A stretch of DNA of 4,315 nucleotides. Source: a plasmid. The position numbers were made by a program, and so were the translations under genes. The stretch lies in NCBI RefSeq assembly GCF_056746865.1, contig NZ_JBWKMP010000008.1. One strand, written 5' to 3'. The notes under the pieces were generated by a model that did not search any database, was not told the DNA's origin, and saw only the letters and a list, made by a program, of their open reading frames with translations. This document shows positions 560-4,315 of this stretch, piece by piece. Positions within the stretch are counted from its first letter, which is position 1. Each line of letters begins with the position of its first letter.

Positions 560-754
560 TTATGTTCCTGTTTCACTTTCAGTCTCAAAGCGAACCTGGA
601 TGCTGTTCTGGAGTTCTTCCGCGAGTTCGTGCAGTCGTTCGCACATGGCCGCCTGTTCGTCGGCATCCAGAGCATCCAGTTTTTCAAGCAGTGTCAGGCT
701 CTGGCTTTTGATAAATCGCGCCATATTCAGCGCAGTTTGTTGCTGTTTGTTCAC
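560..754 (-). CDS. rop: Rop/Rom, the RNA I-RNA II pairing modulator protein (64 aa, GTG start)
   Basis: Translation MNKQQQTALNMARFIKSQSLTLLEKLDALDADEQAAMCERLHELAEELQNSIQVRF... aligns by eye with pBR322 Rop (MTKQEKTALNMARFIRSQTLTLLEKLNELDADEQADICESLHDHADELYRSCLARF...). GTG start as in pBR322 rop. GGAG/GGAAG motif just upstream on the - strand. Position and orientation relative to ori match pBR322. Confidence 0.92.
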   Translation of the reverse strand: MNKQQQTALNMARFIKSQSLTLLEKLDALDADEQAAMCERLHELAEELQNSIQVRFETESETGT

Positions 755-1289: not shown

Positions 1290-1520
1290 TGAGTCAGGGA
1301 TTCACGAACTGAAAATGTCCGAAAATGTGTCTCATGGGCACCGTATGCGCCCAAACCGATCGCCATTCACTTTCATGCATAGCTATGCAGTGAGCTGAAA
1401 GCGATCCTGACGCATTTTTCCGGTTTTCGCTTGGTAAAACATCTCTTTTTGCGGTGTTCGCGGCAGAATCGCGTTCAGCGCGTTTTAGCGGTGCGCGTAA
1501 TGCGACGTTATGGTAAATGA
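1290..1520. other. cer-like plasmid multimer resolution site: accessory region with ArgR-box-like palindrome (about 1376-1393, atgcatagctatgcagtg) and XerC/XerD core at 1490-1518 (GGTGCGCGTAA-tgcgacg-TTATGGTAAAT)
   Basis: Core arms match the Xer family (dif GGTGCGCATAA / TTATGTTAAAT; ColE1 cer GGTGCGTACAA / TTATGGTAAAT as I recall). Flanking gcgttcagcgcgttttagcggtgcg resembles ColE1 cer. ARG-box-like dyad lies about 110 bp upstream, the expected geometry. Confidence 0.75.
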
Positions 1521-1535
1521 GGCTGTTGAGTTATT

Positions 1536-1564
1536 AATGTTATGTCGTAATGTACGTATATAAT
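1536..1564 (+). promoter_or_regulatory. Candidate sigma70 promoter for the small ORF: consensus -10 TATAAT (1559-1564), weak -35 (ttaatg, 1536-1541)
   Basis: Perfect TATAAT hexamer within gtacgtatataattc. The -35 is weak. Inferred from sequence only. Confidence 0.4.
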
Positions 1565-1650
1565 TCAGGCGAAGATGAGAAAAGATGAATAGATCTGATA
1601 TGAATTACCATGATTACTCATGGACGGCTGTACAAGGAGATAATCCACGA

Positions 1651-1878
1651 ATGACTAAGCTAGATGCCACGCGCTTTAGCCGTCATGAGGGTTATGAGGT
1701 GTTAGATTTGATTAATTCCTTCCAGGCCAAAGGGGGTGGTGCTCTGACGCTAAAATCACAGCAGATTATCGAGTGGATGCTACATGAACGCCTGCCATCC
1801 AATATCCAGGGGCGAGCTCAGGTTAAAGCGTGGGTGGTTGATAACTTCTCGCAAATGAAGGATGGTTATCCATTCTGA
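1651..1878 (+). CDS. Small hypothetical protein (75 aa from ATG 1651; the in-frame ORF extends to ATG 1585, giving 97 aa), function unknown
   Basis: Strong Shine-Dalgarno AAGGAGA (1634-1640) 10 nt before ATG 1651. Clean intrinsic terminator immediately downstream. I do not recognise the family and see no obvious helix-turn-helix signature. The longer 1585 start has a weaker RBS. Confidence 0.55.
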   Translation: MTKLDATRFSRHEGYEVLDLINSFQAKGGGALTLKSQQIIEWMLHERLPSNIQGRAQVKAWVVDNFSQMKDGYPF

Positions 1879-1879
1879 T

Positions 1880-1906
1880 AAAAAGCCCGCTACAGCGGGC
1901 TTTTTC
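1880..1906 (+). terminator. Rho-independent terminator after the small ORF: stem agcccgc / gcgggct, loop taca, T-run; A-run upstream
   Basis: Seen directly: aaaaa-agcccgc-taca-gcgggct-tttt(t), starting 2 nt after the stop codon. Confidence 0.8.
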
Positions 1907-2015
1907 ATGAGCTGTGCTCAATGAGGCATTATGGTAAATTGTTATGGAGTGGGCATGTCTGTATATGATGCCTGGTGGTATGATTTTGTTTGTAACACTG
2001 GAAGGTTGTTGGAAT
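1907..2015 (+). promoter_or_regulatory. Upstream region of the endonuclease gene, containing TTATGGTAAAT (1929-1939; identical to the cer XerD arm, and readable as an extended -10 TGgTAAATT) and RBS GGAAGG (2000-2005)
   Basis: Sequence reading only. The promoter is not experimentally defined. Confidence 0.35.
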
Positions 2016-2939
2016 ATGGATTTAACAAATATTGAATTTATTAATGATGCCGCAATAAATAGGAGGCGTTACTGGACTAATGAAATTGTCAAATTAAGTG
2101 GGCATTTTGTTAATGACTCCAGTAGGGTTGAGGAGGAAATTATTTATGAAGTTTCCAAATCTGGATCTCAGGCTTTATTGGACCACCTTCGATTATGCAC
2201 AGCCATTCCTGAATCATATGAGCATGATTCAAGCGAAGAAAAGTTATATTCAAAGTATACAGACGCATTGATTTCTGAATGTTTTAAGTTTTTTGGTTTG
2301 AATAGCATTGTGTTAACTGAGAGGGCTGATGCGGCAGATGTAGAAGTTGTATGTGATAGTTATTCTTTTGTTGCTGATGCTAAAGTTTTTCGGTTAAGTC
2401 GAACAGCTAAAAATCAGAAAGATTTTAAAGTTCAAGCAATGGATGGTTGGAGGAATACTAAAGATTTCGCCATGGTTGTTTGTCCAATATATCAGCTTCC
2501 AGTTAAATCAAGTCAAATATATCAACAAGCTATTCTTCGCAATGTGTGTGTGTTTACTTATACTCATTTAGCTGTTCTGGTAAAGTATGCTGACATTGTT
2601 GGTAGTGATGTTAGGATATTGTTAGAGGAAATATTCAGATCTGTCATACTCATGAATCCAAGTAAGGATAGTGTGCAGTACTGGACTATGATTAATAGAA
2701 CGATGTTGAATTATGATAAGAGAATAGAAAAACTTTGGATTGATGAGCGAATTGCTACATCAGAGGGTATCTATGTGCTGAAAAAGATGGCAATAGAATA
2801 CCTCTCTTCCGAGAGAGGTAGAATTCTAAGCATGAGCAGAGAAGAGGCTGTAAGAGCTTTGATTAAAATGAATAAAATTGAAAGTAGAATTGAGCAGATT
2901 AAAAAAGTGACAGATAATAATATTCTGTCACTTAAATAA
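2016..2939 (+). CDS. Type II restriction endonuclease, HindIII family (predicted AAGCTT specificity); 307 aa from ATG 2016, with the open frame extending upstream to 1944
   Basis: Translation contains ...SFVADAKVFRLSRTAKNQKDFKVQAMDGWR..., which matches my memory of the HindIII catalytic region (ADAKSFRLSRTAKNQKDFKV, PD-D/ExK active site), plus further collinear similarity (EEKLYSK..., SREEAVRALIK...). Length is close to HindIII (300 aa). Start at 2016 is preferred because the 24 upstream codons look non-native. This would correspond to the EcoVIII-type enzyme if my recollection of pEC156 is right (unverified). Confidence 0.88.
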   Translation: MDLTNIEFINDAAINRRRYWTNEIVKLSGHFVNDSSRVEEEIIYEVSKSGSQALLDHLRLCTAIPESYEHDSSEEKLYSKYTDALISECFKFFGLNSIVLTERADAADVEVVCDSYSFVADAKVFRLSRTAKNQKDFKVQAMDGWRNTKDFAMVVCPIYQLPVKSSQIYQQAILRNVCVFTYTHLAVLVKYADIVGSDVRILLEEIFRSVILMNPSKDSVQYWTMINRTMLNYDKRIEKLWIDERIATSEGIYVLKKMAIEYLSSERGRILSMSREEAVRALIKMNKIESRIEQIKKVTDNNILSLK

Positions 2940-3854
2940 TTATTTGTTTAATCTCTTTATACTGGTCTCTACATATGTAGGGTTTATTTCGAAACCAATA
3001 TAATCCCTACCTAAATCTTTCGCTGCTACCAATGTAGAACCACTGCCACTAAAAGGGTCAATGACTAATTGACCTTTTTGTGTTGTTAATTCTATAAGTG
3101 TTTTCATTAAGGCTACAGGTTTTTGTGTTGGGTGTAATCCACTTTCATTGCTGGAAAATCCAGCTGTAATGACATTTTCAGGTTTGCCATTTCTTGCTAC
3201 AAATGCATCTTGATTATAAGCACCGACACCATGAATAATTGCATTATCTGCAATTGTGCCGCCAATTTTATATGGTTTAGAGAACCATAGTATGGGTTCA
3301 AAGGTTGGTTGTAGATTTCCAACTCGCCATCCATTCCATTTTTCTGCGTTTAATGTATCCCCGCGCCTTTCGTAAACGCAACTCAACCTTTGGGCTCTGT
3401 GAGGGGCTTTTACTCTCATCCATGCAATTATATCGCGAAGATTGAATCCAGCATCTTCCATTGCACATATGCATCGATGAGAAAATCTTCTGCCTGCAAA
3501 AATAATTGCACTGGCACCTGGTTTTAATACTCTGAACCATTCAGTAGCCCATTCTTCACACCATTGCTGATATTCTAATGGTATTTTCTTATCAGCCTCT
3601 GACCATCCATTTATTGGTTTTCCTCTTTTTTTAAAAATAGCACCTGCGTTTTTCTGCGCAGGGCTTGAACCTAGGTATGCGTTATTTGAGTTATTATGTA
3701 GCACATCCCAGTCTTCTGCTCCTATCCCATAAGGGATATCACTGAGTATTAAATGTGCATATTGTGATGGGAGTTTTTTTATTAATGATATCGAGTTACC
3801 ATTGGTAACGGTATTCTTTTTTATTTCATCAGGTAATTGGATCTTGTTTAACAT
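2940..3854 (-). CDS. DNA methyltransferase, beta-class (motif IV near the N-terminus, motif I near the C-terminus), amino-methyltransferase (N6-adenine by analogy to M.HindIII); 304 aa
   Basis: Motifs seen in the translation: LILSDIPYG (motif IV, DPPY-like), HPTQKP, VIDPFSGSGSTLVAA (FxGxG AdoMet-binding motif I). RBS AGGAA upstream of ATG at 3854 on the - strand. Convergent partner of the HindIII-like endonuclease. Confidence 0.9.
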   Translation of the reverse strand: MLNKIQLPDEIKKNTVTNGNSISLIKKLPSQYAHLILSDIPYGIGAEDWDVLHNNSNNAYLGSSPAQKNAGAIFKKRGKPINGWSEADKKIPLEYQQWCEEWATEWFRVLKPGASAIIFAGRRFSHRCICAMEDAGFNLRDIIAWMRVKAPHRAQRLSCVYERRGDTLNAEKWNGWRVGNLQPTFEPILWFSKPYKIGGTIADNAIIHGVGAYNQDAFVARNGKPENVITAGFSSNESGLHPTQKPVALMKTLIELTTQKGQLVIDPFSGSGSTLVAAKDLGRDYIGFEINPTYVETSIKRLNK

Positions 3855-3912
3855 CTAAATTCCTGCTCTTTCATAGCTTTAAAAACACGCTGATAGTATA
3901 CGTTAAAGTACC
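3855..3912 (-). promoter_or_regulatory. Candidate promoter/leader of the methyltransferase gene (-10-like TATACT, + strand 3895-3900), immediately adjacent to the RNA I terminator and RNA II promoter
   Basis: TATACT hexamer read on the - strand. No convincing -35. Placement is inferred. Confidence 0.3.
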
Positions 3913-3948
3913 TTGACGCAGGATTACCTTTCATCGTAGCCTTTCTGA
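3913..3948 (+). promoter_or_regulatory. RNA II promoter (-35 TTGACG 3913-3918; -10 candidate TAGCCT about 3937-3942)
   Basis: Position equivalent to the pBR322 RNA II promoter just upstream of the aaaaaacc...RNA I terminator sequence. The -10 assignment is approximate. Confidence 0.55.
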
Positions 3949-4053
3949 AAAGAAAAAACCGCCTTGCAGGGCGGTTTTTTCAAGGTTCAAAGAACTTGCA
4001 GGTTTTTGAACCACGGTAACTGGCTTTGTGGGAGCGCAGTCACCAAAATCTGT
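3949..4053 (-). ncRNA. RNAI: RNA I, the antisense copy-number control RNA (about 105 nt), complementary to the 5' end of RNA II
   Basis: 5' end placed by analogy with pBR322 RNA I (acagtatttggtatctgcgc... corresponds here to the reverse complement of gcgcagtcaccaaaatctgt). 3' end at the shared terminator hairpin. Confidence 0.8.
3953..3980 (-). terminator. RNA I terminator hairpin (aaaaaa-ccgcc-ttgcag-ggcgg-tttttt), which also forms the 5' stem-loop of RNA II
   Basis: Seen directly; equivalent to the pBR322 aaaaaaaccaccgctaccagcggtggtttgttt element. Confidence 0.8.
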
Positions 4054-4057
4054 TCTT

Positions 4058-4092
4058 TCAGTTTAGCCTTAACTGGCAAGAAACTTCAAGAC
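4058..4092 (-). promoter_or_regulatory. RNA I promoter (on the - strand: -35 TTGAAG = + strand 4084-4089; -10 CTAAAC = + strand 4061-4066)
   Basis: Same arrangement and near-identical hexamers to the pBR322 RNA I promoter as I recall it (TTGAAG...17 bp...CTACAC). Confidence 0.6.
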
Positions 4093-4315
4093 CAACTCCC
4101 ATAAAACCGTTACCAGTGGCTGCTGCCAGTGGCGTTAAGGCGTGTCTTACCGGGTTGGACTCAAGACGATAGTTACCGGATAAGGCGCAGCGGTCGGGCT
4201 GAACGGGGGGTTCGTGCACACAGCCCAGCTTGGAGCGAACGACCTACACCGAACTGAGATACCAACAGCGTGAGCTATGAGAAAGCGCCACGCTTCCCGA
4301 AGGGAGAAAGGCGGA

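Follow-up and report, generated by a model that had tools for sequence, protein, structure and literature searches.

A ColE1-type plasmid carrying an AT-rich EcoVIII-type restriction-modification module that is probably old cargo

Introduction

pEC156 is the EcoVIII restriction-modification (R-M) plasmid of Escherichia coli E1585-68 (GenBank AF158026), described by Mruk, Kaczorowski and co-workers. The plasmid has a functional cer locus and is stabilised by this locus and by the EcoVIII endonuclease (PMC4743918). The AAGCTT specificity of EcoVIII, a HindIII isoschizomer, has been reported experimentally (PMC4743918, PMC5974420). M.EcoVIII and M.HindIII are 50% identical, the lowest similarity for any pair of the three isospecific enzymes in that comparison (PMC5974420). 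The R-M genes of pEC156 were reported to have a GC content below 38% (the plasmid has 49.3% and E. coli 50.8%) and a low codon adaptation index (CAI); low GC and low CAI were together read as horizontal transfer (Mruk et al. 2019, PMC6456624).

The HindIII R-M system of Haemophilus influenzae Rd (PDB 2E52, 3A4K) resembles EcoVIII in several respects: both pairs belong to the PF09518 and PF01555 families, a block in the catalytic region (ADAK...RLSRTAKNQKDFKV) is conserved, and the specificity is AAGCTT, that of EcoVIII being taken from the literature. Here we describe a plasmid with an R-M pair of this kind, and examine how its composition, codon usage and junctions bear on the origin of the pair.

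Results

Identity of the plasmid

The window, that is, the whole stretch of 4,315 nucleotides that was analysed, is a complete ColE1-type plasmid known from E. coli and Salmonella. Five circular plasmid records, each of 4315 bp, cover 100% of it with 99.8-100% identity, and its backbone matches at least 5000 records of ColE1-like plasmids. The record L011, labelled 'Zoogloea' (1008 bp, coverage 1.1, 100% identical), was set aside as a host record because of probable contamination. RNA I (RF00106) overlaps the RNA II primer region and rop is present, which identifies the replicon as ColE1-type. The rop gene lies within the GC-rich backbone and provides a reference for the composition contrast. 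The terminator hairpin of RNA I (3952-3981; folding energy -19.7 kcal/mol, z=-5.0) marks the right-hand edge of the backbone. The features of the plasmid are listed in Table 1.

Table 1. Features of the 4,315-nucleotide plasmid, in order of position
Feature	Position	Strand	Remarks
rop	560..754	-	Pfam PF01815, 119 bits; GC 0.505, GC3 0.531
cer core: XerC arm, central region, XerD arm TTATGGTAAAT	1490..1518	+	left edge of variable cargo slot
ORF97 module: 97-aa ORF (1585-1878) and hairpin/terminator (1880-1905)	1520..1906	+	GC 43.7%
Candidate second Xer-like core; left arm degenerate, XerD arm exact	1911..1939	+	left end of R-M cassette
Non-coding leader and presumed R promoter region	1940..2015	+	upstream of conserved R start
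ecoVIIIR-type gene (R), HindIII-family type II endonuclease, 307 aa	2016..2939	+	GC 34.3%, GC3 0.28; PF09518
ecoVIIIM-type gene (M), N6-adenine beta-class DNA methyltransferase, 304 aa	2940..3854	-	GC 37.6%, GC3 0.26; PF01555
M upstream region and right cassette junction	3855..3941	.	GC 38%
RNA I, antisense replication regulator	3950..4051	-	Rfam RF00106, 85.8 bits vs gathering score 47

Like pEC156, the window has a ColE1 replicon with RNA I/RNA II, rop (rom), cer and a convergent R-M pair. The two also agree in the number of Arg codons (20 in R, 18 of them rare, and 15 in M, 13 of them rare), in the Arg cluster at R codons 16-18, and in the GC content of the R-M genes (below 38%) relative to that of the remaining plasmid (about 49%). 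On the other hand, the published length of pEC156 is 4312 bp instead of 4315 bp, and the tandem Arg residues of M, given as 167-168 in the pEC156 paper, are residues 163-164 in the window. The protein sequence of M is identical to UniRef Q46975_ECOLX. Judged by the published features and the Q46975_ECOLX match, the window appears to match a pEC156-type plasmid with an EcoVIII-type R-M pair. The plasmid has no AAGCTT site where 0.7-1.3 are expected, an expectation too low to inform on avoidance.

The endonuclease and methyltransferase genes

The R product matched Pfam PF09518 with 338.2 bits (cut-off, 25.3; E=5e-101) over profile positions 3-284 of 285, and aligned to the HindIII structures 2E52/3A4K with E=2e-36, the ADAK...SRTAKNQKDFKV block being conserved. 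The PD-(D/E)XK-type block 'VADAK.FRLSRTAKNQKDFKV' is nearly identical in R and 3A4K/2E52; its residues are presumably catalytic, an assignment that we take from the HindIII structure papers. In alignment A2 of R homologues, the columns of D121 and K123 are invariant, as are Arg residues 16-17. The M product matched Pfam PF01555 with 167.6 bits (cut-off, 26.7), and its motif order is that of the beta class, with 'SDIPYG' (motif IV) at about residue 38 and 'DPFSGSGST' (motif I) at about residue 270. The stop codons of the two convergent genes abut, and the 3' end of R contains a hairpin (within 2890-2950) with a folding energy of -18.1 kcal/mol.

The start of R had been placed at position 1944, and RefSeq likewise has a 331-aa ORF that starts there and takes in the leader at 1940-2015. 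However, the homologues begin at the equivalent of position 2016 and align from residue 1, and only with a start at 2016 does the Arg cluster fall on codons 16-18, as published. Therefore, R starts at 2016, the conserved and published position, and the reading frame from 1944 is over-extended. In a sequence search, the left flank (1907-2030) had matches only in the pEC156 lineage.

Base composition

The GC content of positions 1944-3860 (1917 nt) was 36.1%, compared with 49.7% in the other 2398 nt (2x2 chi-square = 80.2, p=3.5e-19). The original prediction of an AT-rich R-M island in a GC-richer backbone, made by eye, was thus confirmed by calculation, and the block differs significantly from the rest of the plasmid. 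Among all 4315 circular segments of 1917 nt, the one with the lowest GC content was 1979-3895 (35.8%); 1944-3860 ranked 71st lowest and is therefore essentially the GC minimum. The plasmid falls into three compositional tiers rather than two: ori-rop at 57% (4107→833), cer/ORF97 at 44-46% (834-1910), and the R-M region at 34-38%. An unconstrained segmentation with two boundaries split off the 57% GC ori-rop block first (833/4112), not the R-M island. In the segmentations that were best by BIC, the left change point was at 1901-1976, an edge recovered only by models with at least three segments, and the right one was at about 4106, inside RNA I/RNA II and not at 3860. It follows that the left edge is well defined by composition alone and the right edge only poorly.

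The dinucleotide signature distance to E. coli was 140 for the cassette and 64 for the plasmid backbone; 2-kb chunks of E. coli gave 68±15 with a maximum of 99.

Codon usage

Codon usage was compared with that of a host sample of 58 E. coli K-12 genes (GC3 mean 0.520, sd 0.056, minimum 0.384). The GC3 values of R (from 2016) and M were 0.283 and 0.257, respectively (z = -4.3 and -4.7). All four codons predicted from the sequence to be frequent in the R-M genes were enriched in R plus M relative to the host sample, namely AAA (55.6 vs 40.8 per 1000 codons), AAT (45.8 vs 15.2), ATT (49.1 vs 24.5) and TTA (36.0 vs 10.8). In addition, ATA, AGA and AGG were enriched 10-14 fold and CTG was depleted 11-fold. 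With ribosomal-protein/EF genes as the reference set, the CAI was 0.26 for R and 0.23 for M, compared with a host median of 0.55 and a host minimum of 0.23. Composition and codon usage of the module are thus atypical of the flanking replicon and of the host alike.

The variable slot and its junctions

Backbone homology with the siblings L002 and L006, which have no R-M pair, stops at 1519-1525, directly past the XerD arm of cer, and resumes at 3942 (L002) and 3933 (L006). The shared backbone (3933/3942→1519/1525) is 88-99.9% identical. In sibling plasmids with this common backbone, the slot is occupied by HigBA, AbiE-like or unknown modules, and the slot cargo of L002 and L006 has a GC content of 33.9% and 41.3%, respectively, against 51-52% in their backbones. 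The whole variable slot, ORF97 module included, spans 1520 to about 3941. The R-M pair is present in some and absent from others of these homologous replicons, with defined junctions, and its interpretation as a probable horizontally mobile cargo module is supported.

A cer-type recombination site comprises an XerC arm of 11 bp, a central region of 6-8 bp and an XerD arm of 11 bp, and cer function takes about 180 bp of accessory sequence in addition. At the first Xer site (1490-1518), both arms are present in the backbone region that is termed cer in the literature. The XerD-arm 11-mer, which is invariant in L002-L008, occurs twice in the window, compared with 0.13 expected occurrences. Its second occurrence belongs to a core-like direct repeat of the cer core located 421 nt downstream of it (repeat family D3, 1492-1518 vs 1913-1939, 78% identity over 27 nt). 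The left arm of this candidate site matches that of the first in 7 of 11 positions, and the site adjoins the ORF97 terminator, without accessory sequence. A single Xer core is located 76-115 nt upstream of R in L003, L004, L005 and L095.

A Pfam search with ORF97 returned no match. The hairpin downstream of it (1880-1905) folds with -18.8 kcal/mol (z=-4.9). Both this hairpin and the RNA I terminator were found by folding; a consensus terminator scan missed them because of its rules on loop length and stem. In L007, a plasmid without the R-M pair, the cer-ORF97 segment (window positions 1341-1906) is common at 95% identity, and other cargo follows past the terminator. The ORF97 module is therefore within the cargo slot but outside the R-M island.

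On the right-hand side, positions 3855-3901 occur only with this R-M lineage, whereas 3902-3949 are about 90% identical in other ColE1 plasmids; 10-50 nt separate the cassette from the RNA I 3' end (3950). The original prediction had the island bounded by the small-ORF terminator and Xer-like motif on one side and by the RNA I terminator on the other. This holds on the left, where homology to L007 stops at 1906, at the end of the ORF97 hairpin, with the Xer-like core next, and on the right, where homology to other backbones starts again at 3902-3942, close to but outside the RNA I end; the part that did not hold is the gene start at 1944. The right-hand joint lies at the RNA I terminator, and no Xer or oriT site was identified at it. 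The crossover mechanism is not readable from the sequence, since all partners have one and the same XerD arm.

Relatives of the R-M pair

The nearest relatives of R (69-82% identity) are on small ColE1 or Rep3 plasmids, those named being from E. coli, Pantoea, Providencia and Xenorhabdus, and on metagenomic contigs; all are AT-rich. Relatives are found on Providencia, Xenorhabdus and low-GC Rep3 plasmids. Outside plasmids, the closest relatives (54-64% identity) come from many different phyla, and a GC content of 40-55% is frequent among their R genes. R and HindIII share 36% identity over 250 aligned residues, and HindIII is on a separate long branch in an NJ tree drawn without support values. 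The HindIII R-M system is chromosomal in Haemophilus and not plasmid cargo. Considering the low identity of R and M, the separate branch and this chromosomal location, HindIII is a distant family member and not the source. The patterns used in the genome scan (SEEKLYSK and ERAD[AS]ADVE) are specific to the EcoVIII-like subfamily and thus blind to HindIII-like genes of Pasteurellaceae, so the absence of Pasteurellaceae among the matches is not evidence. Within this range of relatives, from small Enterobacterales plasmids through the scattered sequences of 54-64% identity to the distant HindIII, no donor lineage was identified.

Persistence of the AT-richness

Between the R-M genes of the window and those of the L003 type, pS was 0.75-0.80 and dN was 0.09-0.12 (Nei-Gojobori); dS is given only as saturated because pS is above the Nei-Gojobori saturation limit. 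In the same comparison, RNA I was 73.5% and RNA II 68-72% identical. The ori and the R-M pair have diverged to a similar extent, which is compatible with old co-inheritance and equally with repeated exchange of the cassette among ColE1 plasmids that had diverged beforehand. Recombination of this kind has occurred in L005, even inside M.

Despite saturated synonymous divergence, the ColE1-borne EcoVIII-like lineages have kept a GC3 of 0.26-0.31, and their composition is therefore not a short-lived transient. The same order is seen in the ColE1 plasmid L095, whose backbone has 41.5% GC: the Xer core is followed after 76 nt by R and M, and after another 92 nt by RNA I. The GC of R and of the rest, respectively, was 0.281 and 0.328 in L096, 0.312 and 0.387 in L094, 0.318 and 0.418 in L091, 0.338 and 0.415 in L095, 0.344 and 0.489 in L003, and 0.343 and 0.494 in the window. 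Related endonuclease genes were below the GC of their flanks in 52 of 56 unrelated genomes from many phyla (mean difference, -7.1 points). Across the family, the GC of R correlated with that of its context (r=0.81, slope 0.58), and inverse regression assigned an R gene of 0.344 GC to a host of 0.41±0.05 GC. The R gene of the window is offset from its host by -16 points, about twice the family mean (z=-2.1), so that some genuine origin in a lower-GC pool is still needed. The composition of the R-M genes fits a gene pool of hosts or plasmids of about 33-42% GC.

Discussion

We consider it very probable that the R-M pair is old, AT-rich EcoVIII-type cargo in the variable slot of a ColE1 plasmid and not the product of a recent jump from Haemophilus. 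The pair would be accessory cargo in the single variable slot of the plasmid, between the XerD arm of cer and the RNA I terminator/RNA II promoter, and the block would be AT-rich because it is such cargo. By analogy with what has been published for pEC156, the module would serve as a defence and addiction unit: R would cut unmethylated AAGCTT, M would protect the host DNA, and loss of the plasmid would kill the cell. Judging from the junctions, transfer of the module among small plasmids was most likely due to recombination in or beside conserved flanks (the Xer core and the ori region). Its AT-richness would then be an old, persistent property of the R-M lineage rather than the mark of a recent event.

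It is improbable that the island is a passive relic, left by a fairly recent transfer out of a low-GC organism such as Haemophilus and not yet drifted to E. coli composition. The genome of H. influenzae has a GC content of roughly 38%. The 34-38% GC of the island is near this value, R and M both fall into HindIII families, the codon usage is foreign to E. coli, and horizontal transfer is the published reading. Nevertheless, R is only 36% identical to HindIII, M.EcoVIII and M.HindIII share only 50%, relatives of 69-82% identity are on plasmids of E. coli, Pantoea, Providencia and Xenorhabdus and on metagenomic contigs, and the ColE1-borne lineages are saturated in synonymous divergence and still AT-rich. 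Haemophilus, implied as the source in the original prediction, is thus not supported. As for the wider claim of acquisition from a low-GC donor, the module is indeed foreign to the backbone and to E. coli and absent from sibling backbones; the low GC is no clean evidence of a recent jump, given the saturated lineages that keep their low GC3 and the R genes that lie below the GC of their flanks in so many genomes. That there is no island at all, only a local fluctuation in GC or the amino-acid constraint of two proteins, merits practically no credence. It is true that GC1 and GC2 are also low, that FYMINK residues are enriched in the two proteins (0.31-0.32 compared with 0.23 in the host sample), and that the remaining plasmid is itself heterogeneous (38% to 60% GC). 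However, third codon positions show the contrast most strongly (GC3 0.26-0.28 vs 0.52±0.06), the chi-square p value is 3.5e-19 for what is essentially the global GC minimum, the dinucleotide distance is beyond the host range, and the presence/absence polymorphism matches the compositional edges.

AT-richness and rare codons might instead be actively maintained, through low translation of a toxic endonuclease or xenogeneic silencing, or reflect an AT-biased equilibrium typical of mobile defence genes; we regard this as possible, if somewhat doubtful. A low GC content would then tell little about a donor. In plasmids whose backbones have 49% GC, the GC3 has stayed at 0.26-0.31 although dS is saturated, the endonuclease genes lie below flank GC in 52 of 56 genomes of many phyla, other cargo in the slot is AT-rich too, and Arg 16-17 are invariant in alignment A2. 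The rare-Arg cluster has moreover been proposed as a natural tuner of endonuclease synthesis (Mruk et al. 2019, PMC6456624). Yet the GC of R tracks its context, as mutational drift predicts and a fixed optimum does not, the window deviates beyond what the family trend predicts for a 51% GC host, and the divergence of the lineages might have taken place in low-GC hosts. The more specific proposal, that low GC and rare codons are a selected lineage trait that throttles or silences a toxic module on a multicopy plasmid, co-diversifying with ColE1 in hosts of about 50% GC, is offered only tentatively and is rather unlikely.

The AT-rich block is real and ordinary. The discovery value is small, since the GC and codon contrast of EcoVIII/pEC156 and its reading as horizontal transfer have been published, as has the pattern of GC-rich core and AT-rich cargo in ColE1 plasmids. 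What is gained are corrections: the donor is not Haemophilus, R starts at 2016 and not at 1944, and the slot from the XerD arm of cer to the RNA I terminator holds interchangeable addiction/defence modules. For R-M genes, a GC content below that of the context is the rule in the genomes compared here. A low R-M GC can outlast very long periods of divergence and therefore argues only weakly for a recent event or for any one donor.

The window shows the mosaic pattern described for ColE1 plasmids, in which the housekeeping region is host-like and GC-rich (51.7-59.4% in Enterobacteriaceae) and the accessory region, of 32.4-52.5% GC, may hold R-M or toxin-antitoxin systems (Ares-Arroyo et al. 2018, PMC5864857). 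Locating the slot edges of this backbone at the Xer core and at the RNA I terminator, as done here, goes beyond that study. Recombination at Xer/cer and oriT is known from pECL18/pKPN2 (Zakharova 2002) and qnrB19 plasmids (Tran 2012), as cited in PMC8683028. As in the plasmids covered there, cargo joints of the window coincide with Xer core sites; unlike in those plasmids, its second core is a candidate only and its right joint is at the RNA I terminator. Acinetobacter pdif modules (PMC7399989) are, like ORF97, small modules between two directly repeated Xer-like cores, and by analogy with them the ORF97 segment may be an excisable Xer module.

Identity of the plasmid and its genes

The window, 4315 bases long, covers a circular plasmid in full. 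It agreed over its whole length, at 99.8–100% identity, with five plasmid records of 4315 bp from E. coli and Salmonella. In the pEC886 record, this plasmid additionally carries a Tn3/blaTEM-2 insertion. The window is a ColE1-type replicon in which a convergent gene pair, encoding an endonuclease (R) and a methyltransferase (M), occupies the interval 1944–3860. By its published description, pEC156 (4312 bp, AF158026), the carrier of the EcoVIII R-M system, is just such a plasmid (PMC4743918). As published for EcoVIII, 18 of the 20 Arg codons of R and 13 of the 15 of M are rare, and R has three clustered Arg codons from codon 16 onward, two of them rare and one common (PMC6456624). In addition, UniRef entry Q46975_ECOLX is the M protein of the window. 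By these published features, the window may be named a pEC156-type plasmid. M has tandem rare Arg codons, which are numbered 167–168 in the published account (PMC6456624) but are codons 163–164 in the window (3363–3368 region), where a stop codon lies directly upstream of the M ATG. Either the paper misnumbers them or the window differs slightly from AF158026.

Features of the window
Feature	Coordinates	Strand	Remarks
rop	560–754	−	Pfam PF01815
cer core	1490–1518		XerC arm, central region, XerD arm
ORF97 and strong hairpin	1520–1906		first slot unit; 97-codon ORF (1585–1878)
Second Xer-core-like site	1911–1939		between units; 78% identical to cer core over 27 nt
R	2016–2939	+	HindIII-family endonuclease (PF09518, 338 bits)
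M	2940–3854	−	N6/N4 methyltransferase (PF01555, 168 bits)
RNA I	3950–4051	−	Rfam RF00106, 85.8 bits

R had been taken to start at 1944, but its homologues begin at the ATG at 2016, the Pfam match agrees with that start, and the published codon numbering fits no other; the product then has 307 aa. The coordinate 1944 should be dropped. The RefSeq endonuclease has 331 aa from 1944, 1944–2015 being the extra part. The stop codons of R and M adjoin (TAA at 2937–2939 and TTA at 2940–2942), and a strong hairpin within 2890–2950 (−18.1 kcal/mol, z = −5.8), which overlaps the 3′ end of R, may be their shared terminator.

Inside the RNA II primer region, a 53-codon GTG ORF (4058–4219, minus strand) is annotated in RefSeq as a "replication initiation protein" (WP_071779772.1). 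Since ColE1 replication is not known to need a Rep protein, this call is probably spurious.

Composition of the R-M module

The original prediction, made by eye, was of an AT-rich island at 1944–3860. The GC and codon-usage calculations that it proposed were performed, and the difference from the rest of the plasmid was significant. The GC content was 36.1% in the interval and 49.7% elsewhere (chi-square 80, p = 3e-19), and the window of equal length with the lowest GC content on the circle is offset from the interval by no more than 35 nt. The GC contents at third codon positions (GC3) of R and M were 0.28 and 0.26, respectively, compared with 0.52±0.06 (minimum 0.38) in 58 E. coli K-12 genes. 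The codons AAA, AAT, ATT and TTA, named in the prediction, were enriched 1.4- to 3.3-fold in the R-M genes relative to this host sample, and ATA, AGA and AGG more than 10-fold; the codon adaptation index (CAI) of R-M fell among the lowest host values. By dinucleotide signature, the cassette lay about 4.8 sd from E. coli, whereas the backbone was typical. Three compositional tiers were found: ori-rop (57% GC), the cer/ORF97 region (44–46%) and R-M (34–38%). Since RNA I and the RNA II 5′ region have only 38–46% GC themselves, composition sets the left edge at 1901–1976 and the right edge near 4106, not at 3860. AAGCTT, the EcoVIII target, had no sites in the whole window compared with 0.7–1.3 expected, which is not significant.

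A cargo slot between the cer core and RNA I

The backbone from 3933/3942 through 4315 and 1 to 1519/1525 recurs at 88–99.9% identity in L002 (a plasmid of 4721 bp) and L006 (one of 3257 bp), where an AbiE-like toxin-antitoxin pair or HigBA fills the slot instead. Their cargo is AT-rich too (33.9% and 41.3% GC versus 51–52% for the backbones). The left break directly follows the XerD arm of the cer core (TTATGGTAAAT, 1508–1518). In the window the slot consists of two units, the ORF97 module and then the R-M pair. ORF97 had no Pfam match. The R-M-less L007 also has the ORF97 unit, and its homology with the window stops at 1906. The second Xer-core-like site carries an exact XerD arm, a motif present twice in the window versus 0.13 expected by chance. 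On the right, 3855–3901 is specific to the R-M lineage of the window, and 3902–3949 recurs in other ColE1 plasmids, up to the RNA I end at 3950. The predicted boundaries, a terminator/Xer-like motif on the left and the RNA I terminator on the right, are thus essentially right by the homology breaks at 1906 and 3902–3942. Comparison of the replicons shows the R-M module to be an interchangeable cargo of a defined slot.

Across L002, L006 and L007, the slot cargo (AbiE-like toxin-antitoxin, HigBA and unknown genes) has 34–41% GC versus 51–52% for the backbone. Within 1490–1939, two Xer-core-like sites in direct repeat, spaced by 421 nt, flank ORF97 and its hairpin. Were these sites to recombine, the ORF97 module would be lost and a plasmid of 3894 bp would remain, with cer and R-M arranged as in L003, L004 and L095; no such variant was found among the PLSDB matches.

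Relatives and source of the module

The low GC content had been ascribed to a low-GC donor, with HindIII hinting at Haemophilus. HindIII is a distant relative, only 36% identical to R over 250 aligned residues, and has a long branch in the NJ tree, which was not bootstrapped. Far closer are R proteins on small plasmids: at 81–82% identity, further ColE1-type plasmids, from E. coli and Klebsiella, and a Pantoea sequence (L003, L004); at 74%, L095, a metagenomic ColE1 plasmid (backbone 41.5% GC); at 72–73%, a 3990-bp Providencia contig and a Xenorhabdus Rep3/Mob plasmid; and at 69%, L096, a 33% GC Rep3 plasmid. These 69–82% relatives formed one clade in the same unbootstrapped tree, and 54–64% relatives from many phyla fell outside. 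The Haemophilus suggestion should be dropped. M.EcoVIII is 50% identical to M.HindIII and 62% to lactococcal M.LlaCI (PMC5974420). A 1008-bp contig of 'Zoogloea sp. 1C4' (NZ_SSXU01000138.1, coverage about 1.1), 100% identical to the window R, appears to derive from an enterobacterial plasmid that contaminated the assembly.

Between the window and L003-type genes, synonymous differences were saturated (pS 0.75–0.80) and dN was 0.09–0.12, and RNA I and RNA II were 68–74% identical. Despite this divergence, the R GC content stays at 0.34 and GC3 at 0.26–0.31 in all these lineages. Within the plasmid clade, as the GC content outside R climbs from 0.33 to 0.49, that of R goes up only from 0.28 to 0.34. 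In GC content, R was below its flanks in 52 of the 56 genomes with usable flanks (mean difference −7.1 points, r = 0.81, Wilcoxon p 5e-10). The family trend predicts an R GC content of 42% at a host value of 51%; the 34% of the window lies 2.1 residual sd below this value, and a context of 41±5% GC was obtained by inverse regression. In our reading, the R-M module is part of a pool of AT-rich genes that plasmids carry in lower-GC hosts, and the usual AT offset of such genes accounts for part of the GC contrast. Because AT-richness is also persistent, it neither dates the acquisition nor names a donor.

Recombination of the cassettes

L003, L004, L005 and L095 share the order Xer core, 76–115 nt, R, M, about 100 nt, RNA I. 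Recombination shuffles these cassettes, as seen in L005 and L008. L005 (NZ_CP064016.1, 6001–9874) is a ColE1 fragment adjoining IS26 on a conjugative IncFII plasmid with mcr-3.5 and qnrS1. Its R-M pair is chimeric. R is of the L003 type (dS 0.01), whereas RNA I/RNA II and the region upstream of M match the window at 100% identity. M falls between the two types, with a dS of 0.28 from the window and of 1.03 from L003, which points to a crossover inside M. In L008, the cer-ORF97-R-M-ori block of the window is joined to a different rop/mob region. Cassette exchange would take place at, or next to, the Xer core and the flank of ori; the XerD arm does not differ between partners, so that a crossover by Xer cannot be distinguished from one driven by homology.

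Comparison with known systems

EcoVIII cuts and methylates AAGCTT, and cer, copy-number control and EcoVIII stabilise pEC156, the stated mechanism being post-segregational killing (PMC4743918). The AT-rich island is a correct finding, yet already known: the published GC contents are below 38% for the EcoVIII R-M genes, 49.3% for the plasmid and 50.8% for E. coli, with CAI values of 0.151 and 0.185 (PMC6456624). ColE1 plasmids have been described as mosaics of GC-rich conserved and AT-rich variable regions (PMC5864857), and cer/Xer and oriT recombination is cited in PMC8683028 as a route of their evolution.
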